From IMG/VR virus record IMGVR_UViG_3300011438_000001: DNA of 64,000 nucleotides. One strand, given 5' to 3'. This DNA comes from an uncultured virus (IMG/VR IMGVR_UViG_3300011438_000001). Lineage: Duplodnaviria > Heunggongvirae > Uroviricota > Caudoviricetes. This document shows positions 35,597-62,018 of this stretch, piece by piece. The position numbers were made by a program, and so were the translations under genes. The notes beneath the pieces are model-generated. The model saw only the letters and a list, made by a program, of their open reading frames with translations. It was not told the origin of the DNA and did no database searches. The number at the start of each line of letters is the position of its first letter. Position 1 is the stretch's first letter.

Positions 35597-38500
35597 ATGA
35601 AAATCCTTCCAGTCCTGGTTCTAATGGCCGTTCCGCTTCCGCTCTCCGCAGTAGATATCTACCTCCGCACTCATGACAACAAAAACTGCCGCGTCATCGG
35701 CGCCACCTTTGCCACTCCCATCGTCGTCACCTGCGCCGCAGCCCACAACATGGCCGCTGGCGACCGTGTCTGGTTCAGCAACATCGCAGGCAACTTCGCC
35801 ACCAACGGCCTGCGTTACGTAGAAATCCCTTCCGCCACGACCTTGCGCCTTTATTCCGACGCTGCCATGACGGTTCCCGTCATAGGAAGCGGCACCTGGA
35901 TCAACGGCAACAACGGCGCAAACGCAGGCGGTTATCAAATCGCCGGCGTAGTCGCGCCCTACACTTTGCAACCCAGCCCGCGCATCAGCTGGAATCCTGC
36001 CGGGGAGATGATTGAATTCGGAGCCTCCGTCGAAAATGGCCTGTTGGTCAACATCTCCGACAGCAGCACAACGGCCACTGCAACCTACAGCCGCGCCCAT
36101 GGGCTCGCCGTCGGCAACCGAATTTGCATCTTCGGCGCCACCGACCCCGACCTGAATTGCTCCAGCACCGCCGGCACCTCCGTCTATTTCACCATCACCG
36201 CAGTCCCATCCCCAACCACCATTCAATGGGTCACCGCATCGGTAACCGACGCCGTCTACAACAACACCAACCTGACCATCTCCTCCTGGGCGCAAGGCGG
36301 CAACCCGGCCTGGATAGCCGTCAACAGCTTCCGGTCCTTCCTGACCGGCGGCTCCCCTCCTGCCTACACTCTTGGCAGGCGGGATTACCAAAAGGAGACT
36401 GCGTCCAGTCTGGCCACCATCTGCTACCTCAACCGTTCCGACACCGAAGCCTGCACCATCGCTGAGCACGCTATCAACAACCCGCAAACCGGCTGGCATA
36501 ACGGCGGATGCGATGAAACCATCGCCAACTGCGGAGACGACGCGGGCGATTACGCCAGCATTGGTGGGGAACACCTTGCCTACATTTATGACTTGATGAA
36601 AAACACCAGCTATCTCGACGCTGGTGAGAAGACCGCCTTTCGCAACGCCATGCTCAACGACCTGGGCGACTCTTGCACCAAGCTCGTCCCGGCCATTGGG
36701 GCCGGTTCTATTTCAGTGGTCGGAAACGAAGCGGTCAATGGTCTCCTGACCGGCACGGGCACCAACTTCCTCACTTCGGTAACGGTGGGATCGATCCTGG
36801 TTGCCCGGTACAATCCCGCCGATCCTATTTCTGCGGCCGAGACGATTCATGTCAACGCGGTGATCGATAATGAGCACCTGACGGTCAACACCTCCACCTC
36901 TGTGCCAAACACGGCTAATCCCATGGGACTTTATTCCATCATCGATCCGCGCACTTCGACCTCCTGCGGCCTCTGGTGGTTTTTGAAGCATCACAACGGC
37001 ACTCCACTCGCTCATCCAATCTACTATCCCCCGGTCGGCGGCTACACCCTTAGCGAGGCAGTTGATCCCATCAACAACATGACCCAGTCGAAGCTGCATA
37101 TCGCGATCCTGTTTGGCCTAGCCATGGCCGATGAGGATCCCCGGGCAGCGATTCTCCTCTCGGACGCCAGCGTCTGGTGGATGGACTACATGCAGCCCAC
37201 TCAGCGCGGCCAATACACGGGCATGACCCAAGGCGGCAATAATTATTACTTTGCCCGTGTGGCTTACATGGCCGTGGATATTCCAACGTTTTGGCGGAAC
37301 GGTTTCGTCGGTGGCCCGGACTGGACTGGCGCCGGTTATATCAAGCCCTTCCAGGACGCATTTAGATTTTTATGGCATCCAAACGCCGCAGTGGGCACGA
37401 GGAATTGGTGCGTCTGGGCATTCGGCGCCGATGCCGACGGAACTGCATGCTGGAACGGCATGGGCGGGCACATGATCAGCTTCCCCGCTAGTTCTAGAAT
37501 TTCTCCAGCGTCGGCAGAGACATCAAAGTTCATGTATTGGTATAACAACGTTGCCGGTTTCAACGCCAGCACCATCAGCGCCGGCAACAGTTACCAAGCC
37601 AACAACATCTTCAAGCGTCAGCCTCCGAATCCCAACGTGGCCACCACCAATTACCTCAGCGACCCCACCCAACGGCTATTTCGTGTGGCGGCATCCGACT
37701 TAACTTGGTGTACGGAAGTGGGCAGCACTATCCCATGCCCGCCAACCGGGTCGTCTGGAATGGCTTATATGTTCAGCCGCTCGGGCTGGACCAGCACAAC
37801 CGACTCCGCGGTTAGTTATTCATCTGCGAGTTTCTATAGCGATCACGACACCCGACGAGCGGGAGATTACTGCATTGTGAAGGGGAATGGACTAATCTGC
37901 GGGGATAGCTATGCGGTCGCGCAATCCCTGGGCAATATGGGCAATAATGCGTCATTTGGCAGGATGAATATGTATTTGTTTGGGGGGCTTACCACCAACC
38001 AGGGGCAGACGGGCGTCATCAACGGCAATGTCCAGGTGCAGCATTACCATGCGCCAATTTTGAGATGGGCCGGCGGGGCAAATAATGATGGCAGGAGCGA
38101 TTCGGCATTTGCTTATGTCCTCTCCAATCTCGCCACCACATGGCAGAGCGGCCTGACCCGTCAGCACCGTGCGTTGCTGCATTACAAACGTTCCGGCAAA
38201 CAAGAGCACGTTATCGTCTGGGATGACGTGCTGCGCACCGCCGCCGGGACGATTGAATATTTCGCCCACTTTGTCCAGGACGGCGAGAGCGGCGAAGGGA
38301 CAACAAGTTGCCCCAGTGGCGACACCACCTGCGCCTCCGTCAACACCTCCAAGCAGGTTAATACTGCCACGGCCGGGTCGGCGCAATCGGTCGTTACCAA
38401 ATTCTTTGCCCCGACCGGCTCGAATATGTTCCTCCAGGTGAACGCCGCGGATGGTTCATATTCCGGCGGTCTCAACCATACCTACCGCGTCACGAGGTGC

Positions 38501-39472
38501 GGCGGAACTTCATCCTGCGGATCCGTCACAGCCCTGGAGACCTTCACTGCCCATCAAGTCTCGTCGGGCGCGGTGACTACGTCTAGCTTGACGGAACTTA
38601 ATCCTTCCGCTGATTGGTCTGGCGCTCAATACACCGACCTGACCTACCTGCATGCGCGGGGCGGCAGCACCTTCACCTCCGTTCCATCATTTACAACATC
38701 CGCCACCACAGACATAATTGCCGCCGGCCTCACCCCAGCCACCTATGAGGTGCGCCTTGGGGGCGTAGCGGTCAGCGGCTGCACCGCCATCGTTGTGATC
38801 ACCGGGGACAACACGATCTACTGCCCAGACGTCGGGGCAGGGGCCATAACCATCGTCCAGAACGGCGCCGGCCCCGATCCCATCATCATCACCACCACAA
38901 CATTGCCCGACGGCACCCAAGCCGTTCCCTATTCGCAAGCATTAACGCTCACCGGCGGGACTCCCGCTTATAATTGCTCCATCATCAGCGGATCGCTGCC
39001 TGTTGGCCTCTCGATTTCCGTCGCAACGATCTCAGGCACACCCTCCAGCTTTGGCCTCTCGTCCTTCACGGTCTCCTGCACGGATAGTTTAGGCGCCACG
39101 CCCGACACTGCAGCCCTGACCATCAACATCATCTCCTCGGGAAGCCCCATCAACATCACTACGACCACCTTGCTGGATGGAACTCAAGGGGCAGCGTATT
39201 CGCAAACGCTCACCATCACCGGCGGGACTCCTCCTTACAATTGCTCGATTATCAGTGGTGCATTGCCCACCGGCCTGTCGATCTCGGTGGCGACGATCAG
39301 CGGAACGCCCAGCAGCGCCGGCTTGTCGTCATTTACGGTCTCCTGCACTGATTCGGTTGCCGGCACGCCCGACACTGCAGCACTGACGATCCTGGTCAAC
39401 CTGCCGGCTGCGTCTGGAGCCGGTGGACTGCGGCGTGGAGGGAAACAAGTCCAGGGCGGGAAGGTCTTCTAA
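35597..39472 (+). CDS. secreted multidomain protein: FCCH-like barrels, heparinase II/III-like lyase region and two putative Ig domains
   Basis: MKILPVLVLMAVPLPLSA signal; SRSGW...DH....GDYCI; two ITTTTL.DGTQ..YSQ.LT.TGGTP.Y repeats. Confidence 0.65.
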   Translation: MKILPVLVLMAVPLPLSAVDIYLRTHDNKNCRVIGATFATPIVVTCAAAHNMAAGDRVWFSNIAGNFATNGLRYVEIPSATTLRLYSDAAMTVPVIGSGTWINGNNGANAGGYQIAGVVAPYTLQPSPRISWNPAGEMIEFGASVENGLLVNISDSSTTATATYSRAHGLAVGNRICIFGATDPDLNCSSTAGTSVYFTITAVPSPTTIQWVTASVTDAVYNNTNLTISSWAQGGNPAWIAVNSFRSFLTGGSPPAYTLGRRDYQKETASSLATICYLNRSDTEACTIAEHAINNPQTGWHNGGCDETIANCGDDAGDYASIGGEHLAYIYDLMKNTSYLDAGEKTAFRNAMLNDLGDSCTKLVPAIGAGSISVVGNEAVNGLLTGTGTNFLTSVTVGSILVARYNPADPISAAETIHVNAVIDNEHLTVNTSTSVPNTANPMGLYSIIDPRTSTSCGLWWFLKHHNGTPLAHPIYYPPVGGYTLSEAVDPINNMTQSKLHIAILFGLAMADEDPRAAILLSDASVWWMDYMQPTQRGQYTGMTQGGNNYYFARVAYMAVDIPTFWRNGFVGGPDWTGAGYIKPFQDAFRFLWHPNAAVGTRNWCVWAFGADADGTACWNGMGGHMISFPASSRISPASAETSKFMYWYNNVAGFNASTISAGNSYQANNIFKRQPPNPNVATTNYLSDPTQRLFRVAASDLTWCTEVGSTIPCPPTGSSGMAYMFSRSGWTSTTDSAVSYSSASFYSDHDTRRAGDYCIVKGNGLICGDSYAVAQSLGNMGNNASFGRMNMYLFGGLTTNQGQTGVINGNVQVQHYHAPILRWAGGANNDGRSDSAFAYVLSNLATTWQSGLTRQHRALLHYKRSGKQEHVIVWDDVLRTAAGTIEYFAHFVQDGESGEGTTSCPSGDTTCASVNTSKQVNTATAGSAQSVVTKFFAPTGSNMFLQVNAADGSYSGGLNHTYRVTRCGGTSSCGSVTALETFTAHQVSSGAVTTSSLTELNPSADWSGAQYTDLTYLHARGGSTFTSVPSFTTSATTDIIAAGLTPATYEVRLGGVAVSGCTAIVVITGDNTIYCPDVGAGAITIVQNGAGPDPIIITTTTLPDGTQAVPYSQALTLTGGTPAYNCSIISGSLPVGLSISVATISGTPSSFGLSSFTVSCTDSLGATPDTAALTINIISSGSPINITTTTLLDGTQGAAYSQTLTITGGTPPYNCSIISGALPTGLSISVATISGTPSSAGLSSFTVSCTDSVAGTPDTAALTILVNLPAASGAGGLRRGGKQVQGGKVF

Positions 39473-39475: not shown

Positions 39476-42022
39476 ATGGCCAGAAGGCGAACGGCACGGC
39501 AGACTCCAGCGACTGGTCTAGCCGTCCCGCAGGAGCAACTCTTTGAAGCCGCGGCGCAGGCGCACCAGCTTCGCCAATCGACTTTGGAAGCATTGGGAGG
39601 TGGGGGCTCCGCCGGCCCCAATGATGGATCTACTCCTGCTTATGTTCAAGCTCCAGAAATTGGAGCCCCCAAATGGGAAGCCCTCCCCTGCCGCGCCGTT
39701 TATCTCGCCATCAAGAACCACGGCCGCTATTCGTTGCAACACGTTGCGGCGCAGCAAATCGCCAACGACGCATTGACCGCTTATATCTATGGCCAATCCT
39801 GGGCGGATCCTCTTTACCGTCCCAGCCCGCAGATGCGCGTTGCATATAGAAAGGAATTCGAAATTGGCATGGGCGGGGCAAAGGGCGGGGCGAAGACGTT
39901 CCTCCTGCCGATGTGGATGACCTGGGGCAATCCATGGTTGCCGGAATATGAGGACGGCCGGTTGATCCTCCATCGCCGGTCCTATCTCTACCATCCCAAT
40001 TTTATTGGCCTGATCCTGCGCCGCAACCAAGTCGATATGGTGGAGATCATTCAAAAGTCCAAGGACATCTTTGGGCTCTTTGGAGGTTATTATTCCACCG
40101 CAGACTCCACCTACCGTTTTCCTAATGGCGGCATGGTCGGGTTCGGGCATATTGCGGATAAGAATTCTTACAAAAAATACTTTGGCCGCAACATCACCAA
40201 ACTCGCCATCGATGAATTGGTGCAGGTTGAGGAATTGAAAACCTATGAGCAGATCAAATCCTGCGTCCGTTCAGCCTATCCAGACCTTCGCGCCCAAATT
40301 CTCTGCACCTTCAACCCCAAGGGCGGGCCGGGCGTTGCCTGGGTCTTTGATTACTACATAGAGCCTAAACAGAGGCATCCTACGGAAAAGGATGTGTTGA
40401 TCCCCATTCTAGGGAGCGATGGGTTGCCTATAAAAGCATTCGACGGGGCCGGCCGGGCGACTTATCCAGAGCCATCCATCAAGGCCAAGGTCGATATGAA
40501 GATGGTCTATGCACGGCTTGGCGTGGAGGCGCCGGCCGGGACCAGCGATTCACTAGATAGATGCTTTATTCCAGCGTTTGTCACCGACAATCCATATCTT
40601 CTAGATGATCCCACCTACGTCAAATCCCTTGCCTCTCTAGACGAGGACGATAGAGATGCGTATTTATTTGGCAAATGGGAGATGGGCGGCGGGGCTTACT
40701 TTGCGAATTTTCGTCCCATGCGTTTAGAACATGAACCAGAGAATGCTTGTCATGTTGTGAAGGGACTAGGGCAATTCCATGTCCCTGGTGGGAGGCTTGA
40801 TTCCCTAGGCCGGGAGATTGACCTAACCGACAAGAAGATCTTGTCTCGACCTATCTCCTTCTGGTGGGATCGCGACATCGGCGGGGACTGGGGATTCGGC
40901 CATGAGGCAGCTTTCTATTGGGGGGCGCAGAATCCATCCACCCATCAAATCGACGTTTATCGCGAGAGGGTCTTTCATGAGACCATGCCGGAATCGGTCG
41001 GCTTTGAAGTCGGGAGAGAATCTGCGCAGGAGTTGAGAGAGCATCCTGCCCATCGCATGAATCTTTGGCTAGGTGGAGACGTTGAGGAGAATAGATCAGG
41101 TGGTGGCCGGCAGATCATCGAGCTGATCGCCGCGGGGATCCGCCAAGCGATCGGGCCTAACATGGTCCACATGCCGGATTATGTAGCGGCGCAAATTGCG
41201 CGAGCCCAGCGCGGCCGGGAGATGGAACGTGATTTTGCCTCAGCTGCGCAGATGCCCAATGGGCAGGAGGCTTCACCAATTGATTGGCTGGATCCAGAAT
41301 CGCTTCGCCAAGTGAAGTTGCAACGGGCTAGTGGAATCATCATCCGTCGTGCGCTAAGCGACCGGGTTATTGGGTGGCAATTGTGCCGATCCATGATGCG
41401 ATGGGCTCCGATTGTTCCATTTGATTCGCAGCAGTTCGATGCCAACGTTGCCCTCTCTACGCTCTTTAGTGGGATGGGATCTGGCGGGGGATCCTACGAA
41501 TTCAACCAGTATATGAACGAGATGGCCAAGCAGCGTCTGGAGGTTCTTCCACGACTGCAGATCTGGGATAACTGCGTGCGGTTGATTCAAGCCATTCCTC
41601 TAGCTAAGAAGGATGAGCGGCATCCGGACGTCGTTGACAAGACGCATTTCCGCGGGATGGACCTTCTAGACGCTTGGCGATACTTATTGATGGGGATGAA
41701 TGAGAGAAAGGTCGGGGAGAAGGAGCCGTTGGAGGTGGCGATCGAGCGGGAATTTGAACTCAACCTGCATAAATCTGAGCAAAGAACCGGCAAGGGAATG
41801 GACATCAACCAGATGATCCAGATGCGAGCCTTCATCGAGAGCGACATGCGCCGGCAGCGGGGGAAGGACAAAGGGATGCCGGTGGAGAATTTGATTGCCG
41901 CCAGGGGGAATGGCGCTGGAGCTACGGCAGTCAGCCGGCAGCTGGCGGCGCGAGCCCGCGTGCAGCAGATGTTGAAGGGGCAGTTGGGGCCGAATCTACA
42001 ATCCGACTGGCGGCGGGGTTAG
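39476..42022 (+). CDS. terL: terminase large subunit
   Basis: GGAKGGAKT Walker A, AIDE Walker B, TFNP.GG.G..WV, nuclease GGDWGF and DLLDAWRY. Confidence 0.9.
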   Translation: MARRRTARQTPATGLAVPQEQLFEAAAQAHQLRQSTLEALGGGGSAGPNDGSTPAYVQAPEIGAPKWEALPCRAVYLAIKNHGRYSLQHVAAQQIANDALTAYIYGQSWADPLYRPSPQMRVAYRKEFEIGMGGAKGGAKTFLLPMWMTWGNPWLPEYEDGRLILHRRSYLYHPNFIGLILRRNQVDMVEIIQKSKDIFGLFGGYYSTADSTYRFPNGGMVGFGHIADKNSYKKYFGRNITKLAIDELVQVEELKTYEQIKSCVRSAYPDLRAQILCTFNPKGGPGVAWVFDYYIEPKQRHPTEKDVLIPILGSDGLPIKAFDGAGRATYPEPSIKAKVDMKMVYARLGVEAPAGTSDSLDRCFIPAFVTDNPYLLDDPTYVKSLASLDEDDRDAYLFGKWEMGGGAYFANFRPMRLEHEPENACHVVKGLGQFHVPGGRLDSLGREIDLTDKKILSRPISFWWDRDIGGDWGFGHEAAFYWGAQNPSTHQIDVYRERVFHETMPESVGFEVGRESAQELREHPAHRMNLWLGGDVEENRSGGGRQIIELIAAGIRQAIGPNMVHMPDYVAAQIARAQRGREMERDFASAAQMPNGQEASPIDWLDPESLRQVKLQRASGIIIRRALSDRVIGWQLCRSMMRWAPIVPFDSQQFDANVALSTLFSGMGSGGGSYEFNQYMNEMAKQRLEVLPRLQIWDNCVRLIQAIPLAKKDERHPDVVDKTHFRGMDLLDAWRYLLMGMNERKVGEKEPLEVAIEREFELNLHKSEQRTGKGMDINQMIQMRAFIESDMRRQRGKDKGMPVENLIAARGNGAGATAVSRQLAARARVQQMLKGQLGPNLQSDWRRG

Positions 42023-42500: not shown

Positions 42501-45218
42501 ATGATCCCCATCCTTCCGCCCGCCAACCTCCGCGGTTCCGGACCTGCGTCCTCCAACGGAAGGATCGATCCCTCGCAGCTCTGGGAGAATCAAACTTTTA
42601 GATCAGTCCTCTCCAAATTCCTGCACCATGTCGTCGTCGAGATGGCGATGTCTCCTGCGGATCGCGCATTCGTCCAAGCCAATGCTTTGATTAATAACGC
42701 ATATTACCGTGGGAGACAGTATCTCGACATGCTCACCAGTGGGACTGGATCTGGAACTTACCAGACGACCATGAACGCCGGCGGGGCTGAGTCGGTTCGT
42801 CTTGCCACGACATCCTCCACTTCGTTTGGGACCACTCAAGACCTGCTCATCAATTATCAACTCCCTATCTTCCAGGGGGACGTTGATAAATATTTGTCGG
42901 TCCTTGGAACGCGATCCCCCAACGCTCAGGGGCTTTATGATGTCCCGGGGGATCCTAAAGCCACCCAGGTCCAGCGGCTGGCCAATCGACTGGTCCCATA
43001 TATGAAGAAGGCCTTCAATGTGGATCAGAATCATGCGGATTTGATCTTGCAACGCGCATTAAGCGGGCCGGTCTGGGGCGGAGTCTTTGTCCAACGTTTT
43101 AACAACAAGGCAGGGGGAGCAGCTGGCGCTCCCAACGACCCTCAAACCTTCAAAGGGACGATCCAAAAACCGCAAGGCGAGGTCTCATGGAACTGCCCCA
43201 AATGCGGGACTTCGAATTCCCAGGCGGATGTCATCGAGATGCAAGGCCGATGCTTGCAATGCGGCAATCTGTTGTCTCACCAGGATATGCAGCAGCCTGA
43301 CCTTGCCAATGCAGATTTCTCCGCCACGACCATGGGTGGTCCCCCCGCCGGCGCTGACCCAAATTCCCGTTGGCTCACCACCTACATCCAAGGTTCAGTG
43401 ACGTTAGTGGAAGTTCCATATTGGTGCAAGGATCCTGAGTCTTATCCGTGGGTCCACTTTGCCCAGGAGCAGGATCGCTGGTCGTTGTTGGCAAAGTACA
43501 AAAGAGCTGGATTCAACATCGACCCCGACAAGGTCAACTTCATGGGGCGCCAAGCTCTTGGCCCTGGCATCGGCGCCATCCATCAAGGCCAATCGCATCG
43601 GTTCCTTCAAACCCCCCGCGCCGGCATTGCGGCCAGTGCAGATCTCTCCACCAGTTCTATGGGCGCCATGGGGACCAATCATTCCGGTTATCCCACTCGC
43701 AACTACTGGCGGGAGGAACAAATCTGGGTCCACCCGGATCTCTACTCCTGGTTTGATGATTCGTCTAATGATCCCACTGGGGAGGTTGGCGCCTACTTCA
43801 AAGAGAATTTCCACCGTGGGGCAAGGCAATGCTTCGTCAATTCCATTCCCGTGGCGACTTTCGACGAAACGCCATCTGAACATTGGTATCAAGTTCCCGG
43901 GCCTTCAGAGGGCGCCTACTACGATGCAACGTTCACTTGCTATCGCGAAATCATCGACGCGATCAATGTTGTCGTGGACCAAGCCGTTCGGGTCATCCAA
44001 CATGCAACTGGGGAAGTTTTCTTCGACGGGGAGCTAATTAGTGAAGATCGTCTAAAGTCCCTCCCCCCTTCCATCGCCCGGTGGATTCCCGTCGTGATGT
44101 CCAAAGAGGAAACGCTTTCCAATTTCATCCATAAGGTGCAAGGTGCAGAACTACCGGAACAATTACCAAAGCTTTTGGAAATGCTCGTCTCCCTTGCTCG
44201 TGAGGCAGTGGGGATCACCCCTGCTCTCTTTGGCGCTGGCCCAGGGGACGAGACGGCCAGGGCCGCAGAAATTCGCCGCACCCAAGCCCTTGCCCAATTC
44301 AACCCAACATGGCAGGCAGTTAGAAAATTCTGGGCCGAGATCTACCGTCGTGGGGCGCGGCTCATAGCTCGCAACGCCGGCCAGGATGGAGCATTGTGGA
44401 CCCGCTCTGCAATGCTGAATCCGGAAGCTTCACCAATCATCCTCAAGAGGATCAAAATTCTCTTGGATGAAAACTGGTCCTACTTCACAGAAGAAGCAGT
44501 TCCTTTGTCTCCAGGTGCTCGACGAAACTGGATTGAAGATGTCCTGCGCCAGACTCCCCCCGAAGTGCTTGCGGCCATGGGCATGATCAACCCCGCGACT
44601 GGAGAAGCACGGCCGCAAAATCTAAACCTCATTAAGGAGGTGGTCCAGCTCGACGATTGGTGGCTTCCGTCTTATAACGCCTATCAAAGAATTCACGACA
44701 TGATCGGGCGGATCGTTGCCGGCGAAGGGGACCAGATGATGGTTGCGGATCCGATGTTGATTCCTCCCCCGCTGGTGGTGGAGATCATGAGCGACTGGCT
44801 GATTTCCGATGCCGGTGCAGATTTAGAGATCGACAATCCCGCGGCATGGCAGGAAGTCCGGATGGCGATCGACGAGTGGGCTTCGTTAATCCCACCGCCG
44901 GTTCCGTTGGGGCCAGACGGCCAGCCGCTCCCGCCACCTCCTCCTGGCGAGGAGGGGATGCCGCCTGGGGAACCGATGCCCCCAGAAGAGGGGATGCCTC
45001 CTGGTGGACCATCACCTCCGCAGATGATGATGCCTCCTGGGGGCGGTCCCGACCCCAACATGCTCCAGCCGCCGGTTGAAGGGGAAGGTGGGCTCGGCGC
45101 AGAGCTGCCGCCCCAAGAATTGCTCGACCCTGAGATGATGGCCGCGCAGATCGGGCAATTGCCGGGGCAGTTCGTAGATCTGGCTGAGCCGCCGCCCAAC
45201 AACCTGCGGCCGATGTAG
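42501..45218 (+). CDS. portal protein (podovirus-like) with Zn-ribbon insertion and Pro-rich tail
   Basis: size and position; AREAVGITPALFG...ETARAAEIRRTQA matches the portal pattern; CPKC/CLQC. Confidence 0.8.
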   Translation: MIPILPPANLRGSGPASSNGRIDPSQLWENQTFRSVLSKFLHHVVVEMAMSPADRAFVQANALINNAYYRGRQYLDMLTSGTGSGTYQTTMNAGGAESVRLATTSSTSFGTTQDLLINYQLPIFQGDVDKYLSVLGTRSPNAQGLYDVPGDPKATQVQRLANRLVPYMKKAFNVDQNHADLILQRALSGPVWGGVFVQRFNNKAGGAAGAPNDPQTFKGTIQKPQGEVSWNCPKCGTSNSQADVIEMQGRCLQCGNLLSHQDMQQPDLANADFSATTMGGPPAGADPNSRWLTTYIQGSVTLVEVPYWCKDPESYPWVHFAQEQDRWSLLAKYKRAGFNIDPDKVNFMGRQALGPGIGAIHQGQSHRFLQTPRAGIAASADLSTSSMGAMGTNHSGYPTRNYWREEQIWVHPDLYSWFDDSSNDPTGEVGAYFKENFHRGARQCFVNSIPVATFDETPSEHWYQVPGPSEGAYYDATFTCYREIIDAINVVVDQAVRVIQHATGEVFFDGELISEDRLKSLPPSIARWIPVVMSKEETLSNFIHKVQGAELPEQLPKLLEMLVSLAREAVGITPALFGAGPGDETARAAEIRRTQALAQFNPTWQAVRKFWAEIYRRGARLIARNAGQDGALWTRSAMLNPEASPIILKRIKILLDENWSYFTEEAVPLSPGARRNWIEDVLRQTPPEVLAAMGMINPATGEARPQNLNLIKEVVQLDDWWLPSYNAYQRIHDMIGRIVAGEGDQMMVADPMLIPPPLVVEIMSDWLISDAGADLEIDNPAAWQEVRMAIDEWASLIPPPVPLGPDGQPLPPPPPGEEGMPPGEPMPPEEGMPPGGPSPPQMMMPPGGGPDPNMLQPPVEGEGGLGAELPPQELLDPEMMAAQIGQLPGQFVDLAEPPPNNLRPM

Positions 45219-53359: not shown

Positions 53360-53535
53360 TGCTTTCAAAAGCACTAGTGTCTTAGCCAAACCCTTTGTGC
53401 CAACCGCTGCTAGGTCATGAGCCCCAGCAGCGGCACACAAACCTGGGGAAAGGGGTCCACTCACCACCCGTGGACAGCGGCGCGTGCTCGGCCCCGTTCC
53501 TCTTGTTTTCGTCAACTCCCTTGGAGGAAATCAAA

Positions 53536-54267
53536 ATGAAGTTCAGCAAGCGTCTCCTGACGGTTCTAGCCGTCAGCATTCTCTCTTCTTTGGCGTCCTT
53601 GCCTCTGCAAGCCACCGCTCTCTCAACTCTCATCCCCGGTGGCGTCATCACTGACGGCCCCATCACCTATTCCGACTTCACCTTCACCCGCACCTGCCAG
53701 CCGGCCTTGACAGGTCTATGTGCGCCCCTGGACGCTTCCGGCCTGGATGTTTCGCTGATCGCGGGTGGGATCCAGATCGCCGGCGGAATTTCCGTCACCT
53801 CCCCCACTGGCACTCTAGTGGTCGGTGATTTTCTAATCGGCTTCACCTACACCGGTCCTTCGCCGGTCACCGACGTCGGCCTCGCCTTCAACGGCTCCAC
53901 CCAAGGCAACGGATCCTTCGCCCAGGTTGTCGAATCGATCATCGTCAACCAAACCGTCGAGGCGCAATTGGAGGTGAACGCGCCGCTTGGTCCATGGTCA
54001 ACCACCCTGCATCTGGACGATCCCCTCAAGTCATTCGACGTGATCAAGGATATTCAATTGGGCGCCTTTGAGTCCAATGGGTTCCTGGCGCTCTCGACAA
54101 TCTCGTTCGTTCATCAGTACTACTTCGCCCCAACCATCGACCCCCGGTGCGTCGGCGACCAGTGTCCGGATGTCCCAGAGCCCAGCACTTTTGCGCTGAT
54201 CGGCCTGGGGTTGGTCGGCGCCGGCGTCTTTAGACTGGCTCGACATAACGATTCCGTTGGGAGATAA
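53536..54267 (+). CDS. secreted PEP-CTERM sorting-domain protein
   Basis: signal peptide ending LQA; C-terminal VPEPSTFALIGLGLVGAGVFRLAR; GGAGG RBS. Confidence 0.88.
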   Translation: MKFSKRLLTVLAVSILSSLASLPLQATALSTLIPGGVITDGPITYSDFTFTRTCQPALTGLCAPLDASGLDVSLIAGGIQIAGGISVTSPTGTLVVGDFLIGFTYTGPSPVTDVGLAFNGSTQGNGSFAQVVESIIVNQTVEAQLEVNAPLGPWSTTLHLDDPLKSFDVIKDIQLGAFESNGFLALSTISFVHQYYFAPTIDPRCVGDQCPDVPEPSTFALIGLGLVGAGVFRLARHNDSVGR

Positions 54268-54339: not shown

Positions 54340-56565
54340 ATGGAAGAACAACTTCGCATCCTCGAATCAGCTCAGTCCCAATCCCTCACCGATTTCACTG
54401 GCGCCTCTCTGATGGCCGACGACCGGCAGGGCGCGATGGAATCCCTGAACGTCGTCTTCGCCGAGAAGACCGTACAGACCCGCCCGGGCTTCACGCCGTT
54501 CTTCACTCCTGGTCCATCTGCCTCCCTCTTGACCGCTGGCCCCCGTCGGATCAACACGCTGATCCCATGGGATGCGCAATCCAGCGCCAACCGGCTCCTC
54601 TACCTCTGGATGGATCCCCCCACCGGCGGGCCTAAAGTCGTCTCGCGAACCCTCGATGGACTTGCCGCCGATGACGAATGGGAACTCGCCACGATGCCGG
54701 CTGACACCTCGGCCATCACTGCTGCGTTTCTGGGTGGCCGGGTCTTCTTTGCCGGCGTCGGCGGCGGTCCTTACGGAACGTCTGGAGGATATGTCTGGGA
54801 CGGCAACATCGTCTCTGGCTTCCCATCCGTTGACCCACTCTTTCAACGACCCTTTCTAACTTCTGAACTCTCCCTTGGCGTTGTGGCAACCGCCGTCGCC
54901 CCGGGCGAATACCCACTGACCGCCGGCGACCACGCGATCGCCGTCGTCGTCACGACCCGCAACGGCCACGCGACAGGCGTCTCGCCGACCGACACAACGT
55001 TTGTGGTCGTCCCATTGATCTTCACCGCAGACGGCGTCAGTGCCTACACCCTGACGGCCACGCCCGCCAGCACATGGCCGACCTGGGCTTACTCCATCCA
55101 AGCTGTGATGTCGCCCATCACCAATCTAGAAAAGCTTTACTATGTTCCGCAGGGGCTCTATCAAGTCCTGATTGCTTTTGGGACATCCTCCCCAGCGACG
55201 ATGCACATCGCCATCACCGACTCGGAACTCCAGGGGACCGGCACCGCCACCGCCCGCGAAGTCGAGGATCTTTCCCAGCAGTTGAGAATCTCGATCGCCA
55301 ACCAGCCGCCGATCTATCCTGCTCTCATTCGCGAAGGCCCCGACGGCCGGATGGCTTATCTATCCCTAGTCTCCAACGACCTGCTCGACATCCAATCAGC
55401 GGTCTTTATCTCCGACCCCAACCATCCACAGACGATGACTTACGATCGCAACATGATCCAGCTGAAGGGATTTCGCAAAATCTCCAGCATGGTCTGGTTC
55501 GGCAATACCCTGGTGATGTTTGGGCCTAACTCGACAACCTTGCGTCTTGCCACTGGCGATTTCCCTGTTGAATGGCCGGCAGAAGAGGGGATCGACGGCG
55601 GGATCGGCACTCCATTCATCTATGGTGTGACCAGCGATTCCTCCCGTGGTTATTTACTGGTGGCTCATAAATCTGGCCTGCACAAATTTGCCGGCAACGC
55701 TTACGATCGTATTCCTTTGTCCCAGCGCCAGGGACGGCACGATTGGGACGCCATCAATTGGGCGGCACCTACTGCTGCCCTGGAGATCCACGAGATCGTC
55801 GATCTTTGTTTGATCGTTGTCAAGGCACCAATCATCGAGCCTGGGCTTGCTTTGCCCACGGTCGCCACGCATCTGCTCGTCTGGGATTATTCAGACGGGA
55901 TGGACCCCTACCGGATTAGATATTCGGCTTTTAAGATTGGTGCTCCCAATGGCGCCGGCATCAATGGTGGACCGGATATGGGAATCGGCGGAATCGCTTT
56001 TGGGCTTGATTCCTCATCTGCCCGCAAATCACTTTGGATCGCCCGCGGGGATGCGGCTTCTGTTGTTTCAAGATGGCTTGATGCAAATCTCGATAATGAC
56101 CCCGCAATTCTGGGCGAGGATGATGTCTCGGCCAACCATAACTTCTATCTCGACGGCGTCAACACCGACGGGACCGGCATTCCGTTTCTTTCCTCCTACA
56201 CCACTAAGAAATTTCTATCTCCAGTGGGACTGGCCGATTGGATCGCCACAAAATTCTGCCTGCGGGGCGGGCCGATCACGACAGTCGATGGAAGCCCCAT
56301 TGGAAAGACATGGCTCTATGCGGTCGCCTGGGCCGGCAGCTTTGCCAATGGTCCATCGGCCCGCCCGACGGTTGTTGCCCTGCGATCGTTCATCAACACG
56401 GCCCAGACTTCTCTAAAGGACTCCTGGCCATTCCGCCTCATCAACCTTCCAAAGAGCGAAACTTTCTCGCTCAAGGTCTCCAACGGGCGGGTTGCCAAGG
56501 CATGGTGGAAGATGACGACAGAGGTGAAGGTCTGGTTCAATCCCTGGGGCAGAGGGGGGAGCTAG
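54340..56565 (+). CDS. tail nozzle / tail tubular B-like beta-propeller protein
   Basis: SLNVVF...VQTRPGF start, VFISDP.HP, GGIGT; size and position before the fibre. Confidence 0.65.
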   Translation: MEEQLRILESAQSQSLTDFTGASLMADDRQGAMESLNVVFAEKTVQTRPGFTPFFTPGPSASLLTAGPRRINTLIPWDAQSSANRLLYLWMDPPTGGPKVVSRTLDGLAADDEWELATMPADTSAITAAFLGGRVFFAGVGGGPYGTSGGYVWDGNIVSGFPSVDPLFQRPFLTSELSLGVVATAVAPGEYPLTAGDHAIAVVVTTRNGHATGVSPTDTTFVVVPLIFTADGVSAYTLTATPASTWPTWAYSIQAVMSPITNLEKLYYVPQGLYQVLIAFGTSSPATMHIAITDSELQGTGTATAREVEDLSQQLRISIANQPPIYPALIREGPDGRMAYLSLVSNDLLDIQSAVFISDPNHPQTMTYDRNMIQLKGFRKISSMVWFGNTLVMFGPNSTTLRLATGDFPVEWPAEEGIDGGIGTPFIYGVTSDSSRGYLLVAHKSGLHKFAGNAYDRIPLSQRQGRHDWDAINWAAPTAALEIHEIVDLCLIVVKAPIIEPGLALPTVATHLLVWDYSDGMDPYRIRYSAFKIGAPNGAGINGGPDMGIGGIAFGLDSSSARKSLWIARGDAASVVSRWLDANLDNDPAILGEDDVSANHNFYLDGVNTDGTGIPFLSSYTTKKFLSPVGLADWIATKFCLRGGPITTVDGSPIGKTWLYAVAWAGSFANGPSARPTVVALRSFINTAQTSLKDSWPFRLINLPKSETFSLKVSNGRVAKAWWKMTTEVKVWFNPWGRGGS

Positions 56566-56571: not shown

Positions 56572-57138
56572 ATGCCAGTTCTTGACCTAGCCCGCGAGAT
56601 TCGGCAGCTGGCGGTTGATCCGGGGGCTGGCGAGCCCCGCGGCAATGTGGATGGCCTGGGCAATGGCAACGGCCGGCAGGGTCCACGTCCCCCTGCCGGC
56701 AACGGAGCATCTAATGGCCCCCCTGCCGGGCAGCGCCACGCCAACGATCCCAACTCGGTTCGCATCCTGCTCTTTCAAGCCCTGCGCAAGATGCAAGCCT
56801 GGGCGAATGCTCCAGAGGCTGTTGTCGCAGCAACAACCGCAACTGCCGCCCCAACTCCATCCACCGTCCAAGTCGTCCAGGACGTCTTCCTGGTTGCCTC
56901 AACCCTCACCACGGTCGTGCCGGCCGCAGCCGCAACCGAAGGCGCATCCCTTGATGTCTTTGTACGCCAGCCCCTGACCGGCACCCCAGGATCGGTGGCG
57001 TTTAATAGTGGATTTAGATTGACGCCATCCAACATTGCGCAGACCTTGGGAAGCTGGAGCGTCTTCAGCTTTGTCGGCAAGGCAGATGGGAAGTGGTGGC
57101 TGAGGACCAACATCCGGACGGGAGTTTTTTATTCATGA
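56572..57138 (+). CDS. putative tail fibre docking/adapter protein
   Basis: between nozzle and fibre; fibre-like C-terminal domain. Confidence 0.5.
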   Translation: MPVLDLAREIRQLAVDPGAGEPRGNVDGLGNGNGRQGPRPPAGNGASNGPPAGQRHANDPNSVRILLFQALRKMQAWANAPEAVVAATTATAAPTPSTVQVVQDVFLVASTLTTVVPAAAATEGASLDVFVRQPLTGTPGSVAFNSGFRLTPSNIAQTLGSWSVFSFVGKADGKWWLRTNIRTGVFYS

Positions 57139-60100
57139 TCTTACGACTTCTGCTTGCATTGTCCATAGTGTTTGTCATTCAAGCGCAAACGGACTTGATC
57201 GCCCCCGTCACCGTGCATGCCCCAGCTGGTGATGCATCTTCCATCATCAACTCTCGTTATGAAATCAAGGATAAGGACGGCGGGGCTCTCAAATGGGTCA
57301 TGGAAGGAACATTAGGCGACCCAACGACCGGCACCACTCGTCTTTATTTTCAAGATTCCACCCCAGCCAAAATCTTACAGTTTGAACGTAAAGACACCGG
57401 CGTTTTAACGAACCGTGCCGTGCTCGACATGCACTGGATCCCGGCGATCACCGCCACCTACGACCTTGGCAAATTAACCGAAGTCTGGAACCACGCCTAC
57501 ATCGCCGAGACCCACACGACCAGCCTGCGCCCGATCATCGGATCGGATATTGAGGTTAGGGGGAATCTAATTTCTCCAGTCCTACTGAACCTTGGCAATG
57601 CAACCACCGGCCGGTGGGACACTCTTTACGTTACGAATATCGACTGCACGGGGATTTGCGGCAGCAGCTACTGGTCTAGGGATGCTTCTGGATTTATTTT
57701 CCCAACGACAACCGATGACGACGTGCGGGTCCAGAAATTGCAGCTGACCGACGACACGCTGCTCCCGTCGGTGTTCTTCATGGACATCCGCGCAGAAATA
57801 ACCACGATCTCCCCTGGCGTGCGGTTCATGGAATTTAGGGACAACGCCGGCGGGATAATGCTCAGGCTCCAGCGCCAGAACGCCAGTGCCGTTGCCAACT
57901 ACGCCATCTTCGACATGGACCTTCGTCCCCGCGTGGACGACAGTTACGACATTGGATCGGCAATCGGCGCCGTTACGACGCAACGCTGGCGGAATGCGCA
58001 TCTCTCGGGCGATCTCTTCGCGGATGAACTAGGCTCAAGCGCAGATAGGATCTCCAAACTCTGGGTGACCGACATCGATTGCTCCGGTGTCTGCCCCACG
58101 GGTTATTGGGGCCGCGATTCCGGCGCCGGTTTTATCTATCCATTAACCACTACCGACGATGTGCGGATGGAGAAGTTGGTCCTCATGGACGACAATCTCC
58201 TGCCATCAACTTTGCTCTTTGATATTCGAGCTTCTATCTCTGTCATCTCCCCGGGCGAGCGTTACTTAGCCTTTAGAGACAACGCTGGAGCTGAGATGTT
58301 GCGGTTGCAACGACAGATGGCAGGGGCGGTCGCCAACTACGCTTTGTTTGATATGGACCTTCGTCCCCTTGTCGATGATTCCTACGATATTGGATCGGCA
58401 ATTGGTGCTGCAACAACCCAGCGCTGGCGCAACGCACATTTTTCTGGCGACATCTTCGCCAATGAACTAGGCTCAAGTGCCGACCGCATTTCAAAACTGT
58501 GGGTCACCGACATCGACTGCACAGGGGCGTGCGGCTTCTGGTCCCGCAATTCCGGCAGCGGCTATATCTACCCGACCACTACGACCGATGACGTTCGAAT
58601 GGAAAAGCTCGTCCTGATGGATGACAATGCTTTGCCATCTGTCCTGACCTTCGACATTCGCGCTTCAATCTCCACGATTTCTCCAGGCGTGCGTTATATG
58701 GCCTTCAGGGACAACGCTGGTGCGGAGATGCTTCGCCTCCAGCGGCAAGAGGCGGGGGCAACCGCCAACTACGCCATCTTCTCCATGGATCTCCGTCCCG
58801 ACACCGATGATGCTCAGGACATCAGCTCAGTAGTTGGAGCCGCCTCCCTCAAGCGGTGGCGCAACGCGCAGTTCTCTGGGGCCATATCAATCTCCGACGC
58901 TACCCCAACCGTGCGCACCTCCATCACAACCGCCTCGACAACCTGGAGTGATAACGGCGGCACTTTGCAAGCCTCGGTCAACACCACGAGTGGGGCAATC
59001 ACCGGAAAGGGCGGATTCTACGCCGGCCCCAGCGTGGTGCAAGTGGTTGATGCAAATGCGCGATGGGTCGGCGCTGATATCTTCTTCGCTGCTGACAATA
59101 CTTACAACATCGGCGATGGCGGCACCGGCTCGCGTCCAGCGAACATCGGCGCTGGTTCCACGATCAATCTCTACAATGGCGCCACCGCAACGGTTCGCAC
59201 GGCAATCACGACGGCATCAACGGTTTGGAATGATGCTTCTGGAGCTTTGAAGGCTTCAGTGAACACTGCTTCGGGCGCCCTATTTGGTGAAGGTGGAATC
59301 TACGTTGGATCTGGTGTGACCAACGTCATCAACTCATCTGCCCAATGGGTGGGGCATCTCTCATCTAATGTCACCAGCACCGCAGATCTTGGGGCTGGCG
59401 GCATCTACTGGCGAGATGCTTACTTTGCTGGGACCGTCTTCGCCGCTAACCTTGGAAACTCTGGCGCTCGCATCACCAAGCTCTGGGTTACGGATATTGA
59501 CTGCTCCGGGGTTTGTCCAGGTGGCGGGCTCCCCGTAGTTGACACCACCAGCATTGTCTCGGGATCGGCTGATGGGACTAAGCTCATGCGCTTTGAAGTA
59601 GATGGGGTCTCGGCATCGACCACTCGCGTGATGACCATTCCCAACACCGACCAGATCCTGGCCGGCCGGGATGTAGACAATTCATTCTCGGCTGCACAAT
59701 CCTTTGGCAGCACGATCGGCGTCACAGGCGCGGCAACCCTGAGCAGCACGCTTGGCGTCACAGGCGCCACCACCCTCAGCAGCACGTTGAGCGTAGGCGG
59801 CAATCTCACTTTCTCGGCTGACAACACCTACAACATCGGCACGACTTCCAGCGGGCGCCCCGCCAACATCGGCGCCGTCTCGACTATCGTCCTCTACCAC
59901 ACCACCAGCTCTTCAACTGCTCGTATCTACATGGACACGACCGGCCAGACCTGGAATAACAGTTCTGGAACTCCAAAGGCTTCCATCACCAACGCCACCG
60001 GGGCAATCGTCGGCGAAGGCGGTTATTCCACGGCTGCTGGAGTTTTTGTCGACTCCAACAGCCGATGGGCCACCAACCTTGACTTCTCAAGCGACAACGT

Positions 60101-60413
60101 CTACAACATTGGTGGCACTTCATCCAACCGCCCCGCCAACGTCAACGTCGTCTCGTCCATCAACCTCTACCACACGACCAGTTCATCAACCCTGCGCACT
60201 GCGATCACCACGGCATCAACCACCTGGAATAATTCATCCGGCACAATCATGGCTTCTGTGAACACATCGTCTGGCTCGATCTCGGGGTCTGGGTTCTTCG
60301 TTGGGAGCATAGGCAGCGGGTTTGCCACCGGCCTGACGGGCACCTTTACTTCCTCCACGGCTTCCTGCACGGTTACGTTCACCGGCGGGATCGCAGTTTC
60401 GAAAACATGCTGA
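57135..60413 (+). CDS. long tail fibre-like protein with signal peptide and three ~145-aa tandem repeats
   Basis: ATGA-coupled start MILRLLLALSIVFVIQA|Q; D.YDIGS...RWRNA and DNTYNIG..RPAN fibre motifs. Confidence 0.8.
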   Translation: MILRLLLALSIVFVIQAQTDLIAPVTVHAPAGDASSIINSRYEIKDKDGGALKWVMEGTLGDPTTGTTRLYFQDSTPAKILQFERKDTGVLTNRAVLDMHWIPAITATYDLGKLTEVWNHAYIAETHTTSLRPIIGSDIEVRGNLISPVLLNLGNATTGRWDTLYVTNIDCTGICGSSYWSRDASGFIFPTTTDDDVRVQKLQLTDDTLLPSVFFMDIRAEITTISPGVRFMEFRDNAGGIMLRLQRQNASAVANYAIFDMDLRPRVDDSYDIGSAIGAVTTQRWRNAHLSGDLFADELGSSADRISKLWVTDIDCSGVCPTGYWGRDSGAGFIYPLTTTDDVRMEKLVLMDDNLLPSTLLFDIRASISVISPGERYLAFRDNAGAEMLRLQRQMAGAVANYALFDMDLRPLVDDSYDIGSAIGAATTQRWRNAHFSGDIFANELGSSADRISKLWVTDIDCTGACGFWSRNSGSGYIYPTTTTDDVRMEKLVLMDDNALPSVLTFDIRASISTISPGVRYMAFRDNAGAEMLRLQRQEAGATANYAIFSMDLRPDTDDAQDISSVVGAASLKRWRNAQFSGAISISDATPTVRTSITTASTTWSDNGGTLQASVNTTSGAITGKGGFYAGPSVVQVVDANARWVGADIFFAADNTYNIGDGGTGSRPANIGAGSTINLYNGATATVRTAITTASTVWNDASGALKASVNTASGALFGEGGIYVGSGVTNVINSSAQWVGHLSSNVTSTADLGAGGIYWRDAYFAGTVFAANLGNSGARITKLWVTDIDCSGVCPGGGLPVVDTTSIVSGSADGTKLMRFEVDGVSASTTRVMTIPNTDQILAGRDVDNSFSAAQSFGSTIGVTGAATLSSTLGVTGATTLSSTLSVGGNLTFSADNTYNIGTTSSGRPANIGAVSTIVLYHTTSSSTARIYMDTTGQTWNNSSGTPKASITNATGAIVGEGGYSTAAGVFVDSNSRWATNLDFSSDNVYNIGGTSSNRPANVNVVSSINLYHTTSSSTLRTAITTASTTWNNSSGTIMASVNTSSGSISGSGFFVGSIGSGFATGLTGTFTSSTASCTVTFTGGIAVSKTC

Positions 60414-60475: not shown

Positions 60476-60937
60476 ATGAGGAACCTAATCTCAACCGTGC
60501 TGCTCTCAGCAGCATTGCTCTCGCCTTTGCTCTCGCCCTTGTCCTTGCCCCAAGCCCAAGCCCAGGGGTTCATCACGTCATCCACATCCGGCATTTTCAA
60601 GCTGACCATCCAGCAATATGCTTTGCCCCAAAGCATCATGCAGTTCATCCCACCCCAGCATCTTCCAACACCTGCCGACAAACGCGAGGGAGTCATCGTC
60701 TATGTTTTTGCCGCGGATGAATCGACGCCGGCCGACATGGTTGAGATCACGGTCACTTATTGGCAGGCGGGCAAGCAGTGGACGAGGATCCAGCAAGGGA
60801 GCTTTAATAAAGGCGGATGCTGGCCGGCACCTTGCAGGTCTGGAGGATCGGTCTTCTTTATTGGAGCGGTCGATCTCAAAGACGTGAAGGTCGAGGTGAA
60901 GCCGGTGGTCTGGGAGAGCAGGGAGGTTGGGGAATGA
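60476..60937 (+). CDS. secreted hypothetical protein
   Basis: signal peptide ending AQAQ; probably leaderless. Confidence 0.6.
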   Translation: MRNLISTVLLSAALLSPLLSPLSLPQAQAQGFITSSTSGIFKLTIQQYALPQSIMQFIPPQHLPTPADKREGVIVYVFAADESTPADMVEITVTYWQAGKQWTRIQQGSFNKGGCWPAPCRSGGSVFFIGAVDLKDVKVEVKPVVWESREVGE

Positions 60938-61542
60938 TTGAAGTGAAGAACCCCCTGAGGTTTGAAATCCTCTTGGGCATGAGCATTGGCTTCTTCTCTG
61001 GCTTTGCTGGCGGCAACTTTATTGGCCGTTCACAAGGCTATGCTTCTGCCCTCAAGGAGGTCAAGCAAGAAGTCGACAAGCGGTTGGATGAGCTGGCCCC
61101 TGGATCAATCCCCATCCCCAAGAACTTCAAGGGGGAGGTCACCGTCGGCGGCAAAGCCAAGCCCAAATACAAATGGGATCTCAAATCCGTTCGATGCGAA
61201 GATGACGGGAAGGCAGTCAAGCAGGTCAACACTTTTGACCTGGGCTCCACTTCCCAGCCCTCCTGGACCTTGCACCGGGACAATAGCAATGCCCCAGCAA
61301 CATACTCCCTTGACTTGGACTTCAACACTTTTGACCCGGGTTCCGCGCCCCTGTCCGTCAACGAGAACAACTTCGTTGACATCAGGGGGCTCGAATCCGT
61401 GTTGGATAACGAACCCAGCGTCAAAAATATCCAGATCAACAAACCAAAGGGAAAAGAATGCAAACAACTCATGATTGCCTTTCGAGGCTTGATTATTCAC
61501 GGCGTGGCGAGTGGAGAAACCGGATGCATATTCTCGTTTTAG
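60934..61542 (+). CDS. membrane-anchored hypothetical protein
   Basis: N-terminal TM helix; ATGA overlap. Confidence 0.55.
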   Translation: MIEVKNPLRFEILLGMSIGFFSGFAGGNFIGRSQGYASALKEVKQEVDKRLDELAPGSIPIPKNFKGEVTVGGKAKPKYKWDLKSVRCEDDGKAVKQVNTFDLGSTSQPSWTLHRDNSNAPATYSLDLDFNTFDPGSAPLSVNENNFVDIRGLESVLDNEPSVKNIQINKPKGKECKQLMIAFRGLIIHGVASGETGCIFSF

Positions 61543-62018
61543 TTCTTAGCCTGCTTGTCATACTTGCCCCGATGGCATCCTTGCTTGTGCCAACGGCAAT
61601 GGCCGAGACTCCGACTCCTGCTCCTCCGCCAGCCACCAAGGTCGTCACGACGCCAGTCTCCACCTCCATCCCCCTCACTTCGGACCAACGTCTCGCCTAT
61701 CTCGAAAAAGCTCTGGCGGCATCCAACGCCAAGCTGGAGCTTTTCTCTTTAGAAATCCGCCTCTTCCGCCTGCGGGACCAATCGCAACAAGCAATTGAAC
61801 GCTCCAGGCAGGCTGAGCAATTAGTTCAAGAGAAGCAAGACGCCAGCTTCCGCGAAGCTTATAAACCTGCCGAAGCCACCTTCCGCCAATCTGACGCAGA
61901 GTTGCAAGCCGCCACCACTGCAGCCAAGACGGCCCTCAAAGTGCCAGACGGTTGGGTGGTGTCTGCGGATGGCAAGGAGTTTAAACCGCCACCCCCACCC
62001 GCACCGCCCAAGAATTGA
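61524..62018 (+). CDS. signal-peptide coiled-coil protein (fibre chaperone- or spanin-like)
   Basis: hydrophobic N-terminus ending AMA|E; long coiled coil; Pro-rich end. Confidence 0.55.
   Translation: MHILVLVLSLLVILAPMASLLVPTAMAETPTPAPPPATKVVTTPVSTSIPLTSDQRLAYLEKALAASNAKLELFSLEIRLFRLRDQSQQAIERSRQAEQLVQEKQDASFREAYKPAEATFRQSDAELQAATTAAKTALKVPDGWVVSADGKEFKPPPPPAPPKN

Follow-up and report, generated by a model that had tools for sequence, protein, structure and literature searches.

A tail-fibre-type gene with a conserved export signal in the late operon of an uncultured tailed phage

Introduction

Tailed-phage morphogenesis is taught as a wholly cytoplasmic process, which raises the question of why a gene in the tail-fibre position of a tailed phage should open with what looks like a signal peptide. 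The case arises in the 64,000-nt stretch of DNA analysed here (the window), which belongs to the 76-kb contig of an uncultured virus of the Caudoviricetes (IMG/VR record IMGVR_UViG_3300011438_000001); ~12 kb of the contig falls outside the window. The gene concerned is a tail-fibre-type open reading frame (ORF) in the late operon, which an earlier note made from the sequence alone had described as the main tail fibre, translationally coupled to the gene before it and furnished with a signal peptide. The word 'main' has to be read against five other leader-bearing proteins encoded at 30935–39472 and against the part of the contig that lies beyond the window. Our favoured reading, to which we give a probability of about one half, is that the product of the gene is a receptor-binding protein of the tail-fibre type, homotrimeric and mosaic. 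It would be synthesized as a Sec preprotein, be exported, fold in the periplasm and dock onto the virion late.

A Sec-type leader behind a coupled start codon

The fibre protein begins MILRLLLALSIVFVIQA|QTD, the bar marking the predicted cleavage site. We judged the leader by the anatomy of its n-, h- and c-regions and by its conservation among relatives, and both bear out the signal peptide that the earlier note had proposed (MILRLLLALSIVFVIQA|Q). The n-region (MILR) is followed by an uninterrupted 11-residue hydrophobic core, L5–I15 (LLLALSIVFVI), and by a c-region of two residues (QA), so that the predicted junction has Ala17 at −1, Gln18 at +1 and, at −3, Ile15, which is tolerated there and not preferred. 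Positive charge in the n-region comes from a single basic residue, Arg4; n-regions rich in lysine and arginine are seen in relatives. This N-terminal stretch is the sole hydrophobic one in the protein, no 15-residue Kyte–Doolittle window exceeding 1.6 past residue 25, and there is no lipobox, no cysteine being found near the predicted cleavage site.

The ATG of the fibre gene (57135–57137) shares bases with the TGA (57136–57138) of the preceding ORF, an ATGA overlap that the coordinates confirm as previously claimed, and this overlap together with a GGGAG 10 nt 5′ of the start upholds the proposed translational coupling of the two genes. Because of this coupling, seen again as ATGA in the related loci L001, L004, L028 and L030, we take the start to be fixed at 57135. 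ORFs were called by a longest-ORF rule in 14 related loci, 13 of which have a preceding ORF on the same strand, and in 8 of these 13 the fibre homologue starts before that ORF has ended; apart from the four ATGA cases, the overlap amounts to 1 base in L003 and L023, 8 nt in L020 and 16 nt in L021. The composition of the fibre gene is that of its operon (GC 0.564, GC at third codon positions 0.654, codon-usage r 0.81 with the remaining late genes), and no flanking pair of promoter-like and terminator-like sites rose above shuffle level, which is a weak test here.

The N-terminus of the 188-residue protein encoded immediately upstream is not hydrophobic. Its C-terminal half is homologous (E 2e-6) to the 215-residue ORF that immediately precedes the fibre homologue of L020, and this homologue in the same place makes it a candidate adaptor or dock for the fibre. 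A word-based homologue search recovered only the 188-residue protein itself, and it shows no similarity to the ORF upstream of the fibre homologue in L010.

Leader, glutamine junction and cysteines among relatives

An exhaustive phmmer search returned 736 relatives of the fibre protein at E≤1e-3. Most of them share only residues ~790–870, with the consensus LPVxDTTSIVKGSxDATKxxRFEVDG...TRVxTxP; A-type units and a C-terminal cysteine loop, both described below, are common to a minority. The related loci were collected through this shared module with a four-sequence alignment as query, a six-sequence alignment being too diverse; a single-protein scan of viral contigs for close relatives gave seven pattern matches, none of which was confirmed. 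The nearest relatives (P0002, P0004–P0007 and the L001 and L020 ORFs) invariably bear a leader followed by Gln; these leaders agree in anatomy with that of the fibre protein and are unrelated in sequence.

Leaders were called in 153 relatives by a crude heuristic with an error of about ±5 (it plainly missed P0033, and its call on P0144 is doubtful), which assigned a leader to 69 of them. The pair [AGSC]Q occurs within residues 11–40 in 64 of these 69, compared with 23 of the other 84, and Gln directly follows the guessed cleavage site in 48 of the 69. The number of cysteines also differs between the two groups. Leader-bearing relatives have an even, non-zero count in 62 of 69 cases (six are odd and one has none) at a density of 1.17 per 100 residues, compared with 37 even, 31 odd and 16 zero among the 84 without a leader, at 0.51 per 100 residues. 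The C-terminal cysteine loop likewise tracks the leader (28/69 versus 13/84, Fisher P=8e-4). The fibre protein conforms to this pattern, in that its ten cysteines are all paired, as four C-x3-C clasps and C1078...C1092. This pattern of leaders and cysteines therefore points to selection for Sec export and oxidative folding, not for a buried structural helix. Since the start is fixed by coupling, the leader and its Gln junction recur throughout the family, and paired cysteines go along with the leader, we consider it likely, from these comparisons of sequence, that the fibre protein is exported.

Among relatives without a signal, recognised parts of phage fibres are found. P0016, P0046 and P0049 have the Pfam domain Mtd_N, the N-terminus of P0049 being 61% identical to Mtd of Bordetella phage BPP-1; P0089 has a K1-lyase C-terminus, and further ones match PHROG tail or tailspike families. 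Some leader-bearing relatives have enzyme-like domains, namely End_tail_spike in P0053 and a pectate-lyase-like domain in P0127. A tblastn search of 50,697 phage records matched the fibre protein only through its low-complexity shaft repeat, in 12 cyanophage records, residues 850–894 matching cyanophage tail-fibre or structural proteins. One locus bearing the shared module, L035, comes from a metagenome-assembled genome labelled as an uncultured Methanosarcinales archaeon; it is probably a viral contig or mis-binned.

Repeat architecture and predicted trimer

The mature protein is a mosaic of two kinds of repeat (Table 1), A-type units of ~146 residues, which end in the consensus [D/N]IDC[ST]GxC, and B-type units of ~90 residues (589–682, 683–772, 887–~980 and 981–~1072). 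The earlier note had counted three tandem repeats of ~145 residues and four copies of DIDC[ST]G.C. The repeats are real, although only two of the units are complete, a third being truncated and another degenerate; three copies of the motif are exact (at residues 313, 459 and 787), and the fourth is the variant NIDCTGIC at residue 168. At the DNA level the motif does form a four-copy family, with spacings of 435, 438 and 984 nt, and units 2 and 3 are 73% identical across 288 nt at the 438-nt spacing. These 438-nt repeats were found by a general repeat search and were not reported by Tandem Repeats Finder. The C-terminal cysteine loop is present also in P0002, P0003, P0004, P0005 and P0007. Direct matches of the fibre protein to PHROG are weak (phrog_1348, tail fiber, 3e-4). 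Pfam gave no family at E≤0.01, hence no Peptidase_S74, and no domain of any kind was matched in residues 18–175 in Pfam, PHROG or NCBIfam, a stretch that may yet hold a docking domain of a new type.

Trimer modelling, which the earlier note had proposed as a check, was run on residues 795–1092 and gave an interface score (ipSAE) of 0.90 (0.92, 0.88 and 0.90 in separate runs), compared with 0.00 for the best control. The confidence score pLDDT was ~90, and the runs agreed on at least 95% of contacts, of which there are ~1,470. In calibration, 20 of 30 true pairs and 1 of 23 single chains attained the ipSAE mark, which is a rough guide for three copies and for an alignment of our own. The model supports the formation of a tight, intertwined homotrimer by residues 795–1092. 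Together with the module shared with Mtd_N-bearing and tailspike-like phage proteins, it also agrees with the description of the protein as fibre-like. AlphaFold2 monomers were poor (pLDDT 49.7 for residues 585–1092 and 47.6 for residues 18–601), as is expected of intertwined fibres. Despite the poor monomer model, each A-type unit shows a five-strand beta subdomain at pLDDT 70–80. In a fold search the top match of this subdomain was T4 gp34 (5nxh_B; Z 6.2, root-mean-square deviation 4.7, 83 residues aligned), which lies below the noise bar of Z 8; C-terminal domains of the Bdellovibrio fibres Bd2439 (Z 4.5) and Bd2133 (Z 4.3) also appeared, in the noise range and from a low-confidence model. 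PDB sequence searches with the fibre protein, with the 741-residue protein encoded upstream and with a profile of the shared module found no match.

Table 1. Features of the fibre gene and its immediate neighbours, in window coordinates
Feature	Position	Strand	Basis or remark
188-residue protein without a signal, coupled to the fibre gene	56572–57138	+	Candidate cytoplasmic adaptor or socket (inferred)
Shine–Dalgarno-like GGGAG	57120–57124	+	10 nt ahead of the fibre ATG
Tail-fibre-type ORF	57135–60413	+	1,092 residues
Predicted Sec/signal peptidase I-type signal peptide, residues 1–17, Gln at +1	57135–57185	+	Anatomy; recurs in relatives
Degenerate A-type unit 1, residues 18–175, ends NIDCTGIC	57186–57659	+	24% identity to unit 2
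A-type unit 2, residues 176–320, ends DIDCSGVC	57660–58094	+	Protein and DNA self-comparison
A-type unit 3, residues 321–466, ends DIDCTGAC	58095–58532	+	74% identical to unit 2 at the protein level
Truncated A-type unit 4, residues 467–~584, no Cys motif	58533–58886	+	58% identity
B-type repeats 1 and 2, ~90 residues each, residues 589–772	58899–59450	+	Protein and DNA self-comparison
End piece of an A-type unit, residues 759–797, ends DIDCSGVC	59409–59525	+	Self-comparison
Widely shared fibre module LPVVDTTSIVSGSADGTKLMRFEVDG...TRVMTIP, residues 799–855	59529–59699	+	phrog_13925, alignment
36-nt (12-residue) tandem repeat SSTLGVTGATTL, shaft-like	59707–59794	+	Tandem-repeat search
B-type repeats 3 and 4, residues 887–1072	59793–60350	+	Protein and DNA self-comparison
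C-terminal cysteine loop C1078-x13-C1092, last residue Cys	60366–60410	+	Kept in relatives
Small leader-bearing protein encoded next after the fibre gene	60476–60937	+	N-terminal sequence; homologue in L001

Genomic context

The window is part of a tailed-phage genome, with genes for helicases, a primase and a family-A DNA polymerase on the minus strand. The large terminase (39476–42022) matches phrog_979 at 4e-27, and the fibre gene stands after it in the late operon, where nearly all genes between 42.5 and 64 kb have no PHROG or Pfam annotation. The neighbours of the terminase are distant (<28% identity); from these and from the lack of recognisable long-tail genes it is plausible that the phage is a podovirus. 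The 741-residue protein encoded ahead of the 188-residue one (54340–56565) was linked by an Atlas feature search, as a lead scoring 0.95, to PF11134 (Phage_stabilise), the P22-type hub. It had no match in PHROG, Pfam or PDB sequence searches, and a word-based search found only the protein itself. Its Atlas structural neighbours are mostly from Acidobacteriota. On this footing 'nozzle' for the 741-residue protein and 'dock' for the 188-residue protein are plausible names. A PDB search with the presumed portal protein gave chance-level matches only, and neither the 741-residue protein nor a 464-residue candidate capsid protein showed BLAST similarity to its positional counterpart in L020. A search for tRNA genes found none.

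The related loci place the leader-bearing gene in a similar setting. Phage structural or lysis genes supported by PHROG lie within 10 kb of it in 8 of the 14 loci: a major head protein in L020, L009 and L025, TerL (the large terminase subunit) in L025 and TerS (the small one) in L023, and a major tail protein in L028; L001 and L020 have an endolysin nearby, L024 has an internal virion protein containing a transglycosylase domain, and in L004 the central tail fibre J comes immediately upstream. L009, L024, L025 and, as a ninth locus with evidence of a viral origin, L003 are IMG/VR viral contigs, whereas L010, L013, L016, L021 and L030 gave no decisive PHROG match to phage genes. In L020 the gene order is that of the window, a ~700-residue protein, a ~200-residue protein and then the leader-bearing fibre. 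The conserved setting extends downstream, where ORF 60476–60937 is 55% identical (E 4e-42) to the ORF directly after the fibre homologue in L001. A further small ORF at 61521–62018 (+) is leader-bearing or membrane-anchored and has a proline-rich tail (PPPPPAPPKN); both could be lysis (spanin-like) or fibre-associated proteins. Beside the fibre gene there are two or three extra leader-bearing ORFs in L021 (4011–7050), L028 (3886–5908), L010 (4718–6310) and L003 (2899–5423). With several leader-bearing ORFs lying beside the fibre gene, whole appendage modules therefore seem to carry export signals.

Within the window, five consecutive ORFs with Sec leaders occupy 30935–39472 (+), immediately before the large terminase. 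Gln stands at +1 in three of them (MGMAFA|QQ, IPILA|QN and SPALA|QK), the C-termini are aromatic or hydrophobic (WIMFL, WLLSF, LEFVF, FGWW and GGKVF), and one of the five has a Laminin_G_3 domain. The ORF at 31966–33840 has short segments in common with giant fibre-like ORFs of L024 and L027. Just before the 741-residue protein, the morphogenesis operon also encodes a PEP-CTERM protein (53395–54267, +; likely start 53536), which scores 29.7 bits in Pfam against a cutoff of 20.7 and 19.7 for TIGR02595 against 16. The PEP-CTERM exosortase signal is normally cellular. From the PEP-CTERM protein, the Acidobacteriota neighbours and the lack of sequon enrichment given below, the host is probably outside the Bacteroidota. 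The terminase (848 residues) and the presumed portal protein (42501–45218, +, 905 residues) are unusually long, much like those of Cellulophaga phage phi18:3 (775 and 812 residues), with which they have no detectable sequence similarity. Among the replication genes, 1198–4683 (−) encodes a 1,161-residue protein with an N-terminal domain of the uracil-DNA-glycosylase superfamily joined to the family-A DNA polymerase.

Discussion

What is new here is a tail-fibre-type protein, predicted to be a trimer, with a conserved export signal, its export being well supported by comparison. In the pathway that we favour, translation would begin at ATG 57135, coupled to the upstream 188-residue gene, as sequence and conservation indicate. 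The 17-residue leader would then take the chain through SecYEG, and signal peptidase I would cut after Ala17 to expose Gln18, to judge from the anatomy of the leader and its small-residue–Gln junction. Trimerization and the formation of five disulfides, four in the C-x3-C clasps and one in the C-terminal loop, would follow in the oxidizing periplasm, as the pairing of cysteines suggests, and Gln18 may cyclize to pyroglutamate. These three steps are the core of the favoured reading, and with them this host-recognition component of the phage probably folds outside the cytoplasm. The last and least supported step is speculative: the finished fibre would meet the cytoplasm-built particle once lysis breaches the envelope and might dock, plausibly, through the signal-less 188-residue protein encoded just upstream. 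T4 fibres join otherwise complete particles, also in extracts, and late docking is for that reason physically possible. That the fibre joins the virion is suggested by its place in the fibre slot of several types of phage, by the lack of a recognised signal-less fibre in the window and by the annotation of leader-bearing virion proteins of phi18:3 from tandem mass spectrometry (MS/MS). By extension, and more tentatively, across a wide range of uncultured tailed phages, both short-tailed and long-tailed with J-type fibres, the fibres may be Sec-exported, cut by signal peptidase I at Gln, locked by disulfides in the periplasm and added at lysis through signal-less adaptors, which would give the Caudoviricetes a two-compartment assembly pathway.

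Several observations weigh against this reading. The leader is short, at 17 residues, with Ile at −3. Three relatives with A-type units (P0003, P0008 and P0014) apparently start without a leader, on the start calls as given, and by these a leader would be dispensable. The fibre protein shows no enrichment of the sequon for O-glycosylation in Bacteroidota (5 observed versus 7.7 expected). No docking domain was recognised in the mature protein by Pfam, PHROG or NCBIfam, which would be expected equally if docking needed a separate adaptor and if the protein stayed off the virion, and we know of no published mechanism that adds a periplasmic protein to a tailed-phage particle. A phmmer comparison of the late proteins of the window with those of phi18:3 gave no match at E 0.01, and the MS/MS signal from phi18:3 virions may include co-purifying envelope material. 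Moreover, Sec-exported phage-like fibres are described as serving the cell surface in Bdellovibrio (PMC10769870).

One alternative, which we regard as unlikely although it deserves serious consideration, is that the protein is exported and is no part of the virion. It would then be a fibre-like trimer that is periplasmic, surface-displayed or released from the infected cell, where it could mask receptors (for superinfection exclusion, or to shield progeny from debris), function in adhesion or target the polysaccharide of the envelope. All of the evidence for export applies to it equally, it agrees with the lack of a recognised virion-docking domain where signal-less relatives have Mtd_N, and the enzyme-like domains of P0053 and P0127 would suit it, as would the leader-bearing proteins of Porphyromonas gingivalis phages that are thought to alter the host envelope (PMC10367356). 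Against it stand the fibre slot and the stop/start coupling to structural genes in many phages, including the place after the central fibre J in L004, and the match in composition between gene and operon. No signal-less fibre-like protein that could do the work in its stead was recognised in the window, though most late proteins there have no annotation, and in phi18:3 the leader-bearing proteins are in virions by MS/MS, according to the record.

If the protein were instead an ordinary cytoplasmic fibre, its hydrophobic N-terminus might serve in assembly, buried or as a membrane tether, or the true start codon might lie downstream. To our knowledge, tailed-phage assembly is cytoplasmic in every studied case, and the short leader, the apparently leaderless relatives P0003, P0008 and P0014 and the in-frame GTG and TTG among the first 30 codons all agree with such a fibre. 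We nevertheless consider it improbable, since n/h/c anatomy and the small-residue–Gln junction (64/69) are kept across otherwise unrelated leaders, the parity and density of cysteines track the leader, and the recurrent ATGA coupling fixes the start at 57135. Least probable of all is that a moron, or a recently acquired gene for a host surface protein, lies in the late operon by chance. Leader-bearing non-virion genes can sit among tail genes, as lambda lom does, and the PEP-CTERM protein encoded 3 kb upstream belongs to a sorting class that is normally cellular. The gene nevertheless has the composition of its operon, it has no flanking promoter/terminator pair above shuffle level, it overlaps the upstream gene stop to start, its position is kept in distant phage contigs, and its nearest Atlas clusters are all viral. 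The moron explanation is weak because leader-bearing relatives hold the same operon position in other phage contigs, and the earlier note's view that the gene is hard to dismiss as a moron holds good on both composition and position.

If the favoured reading of an exported fibre that docks late is true, tailed phages would have a late assembly step, post-lysis or associated with the envelope. Infectivity would depend on the host's Sec, signal peptidase I and disulfide machinery, and the receptor-binding protein might carry a host-type N-terminal modification. For annotation, leader-bearing ORFs in tail modules are easily written off as morons; for host prediction, the style of the leader would report the export rules of the host; and the engineering or expression of such fibres may require the periplasm.

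Comparison with known systems

A literature search with incomplete journal coverage found no paper on Sec-leader tail fibres of tailed phages, and the fibre protein is best placed by its partial likeness to several systems. The long tail fibre protein gp34 of T4 is the top match of the A-unit beta subdomain, below the noise bar at Z 6.2; T4 fibres fold in the cytoplasm with the help of chaperones and, unlike the window protein, have no leader. The Mtd_N fibres and tailspikes of the BPP-1 Mtd type share the module at residues ~790–870 through P0016, P0046 and P0049, and are likewise trimeric and mosaic with variable distal parts. They differ in that the window protein, in which a Pfam search found no Mtd_N, has a Sec leader and A-type repeats in the place of the docking domain, and paired cysteines.

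Gln right after the predicted cleavage site recalls the Q-rule of signal peptidase I substrates described for Bacteroidetes (PMC5837995, PMC10653852), the taxa tested being only Bacteroidetes, Chlorobi, Spirochaetes, Chlamydiae and Cyanobacteria (PMC5837995). The P. gingivalis phages offer genes adapted in this way to host export, their Q-rule leader proteins, which have no assigned function, being thought to modify the host envelope and not being described as fibres (PMC10367356). The MAT fibres of Bdellovibrio bacteriovorus are described as having a signal peptide, a conserved beta-rich N-terminal domain of ~130 residues, a mosaic trimeric shaft and swappable tips (PMC10769870), and so resemble the window protein in the succession of signal peptide and mosaic, trimeric, phage-fibre-like shaft. 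They differ in being encoded by chromosomal genes of the predator, outside any phage operon, and displayed on its own surface; for the intramolecular chaperone and protease of their S74 subfamily, the window fibre has no Pfam match.

The nearest parallel in a cultured phage is phi18:3, a podovirus of the Pachyviridae. At their N-termini its proteins gp085, gp086 and gp087 read MKNKITIIMILMSISFGYS|Q, MKKTIYILSILLLTISGVSA|Q and MKHTFSIVLFFILSIGLNA|Q, respectively, and its record (NC_021794) assigns each of them to the virion or the tail 'based on experimental MS/MS proteomics analysis'. Unlike the window fibre they have few cysteines (0, 1 and 3), and their host belongs to the Bacteroidota. They share with the window the Sec-type leaders with Gln at +1 and, with the ORFs at 30935–39472, a position upstream of the large terminase and an aromatic last residue, and phi18:3 provides a system in which the idea of exported virion proteins can be tested directly.

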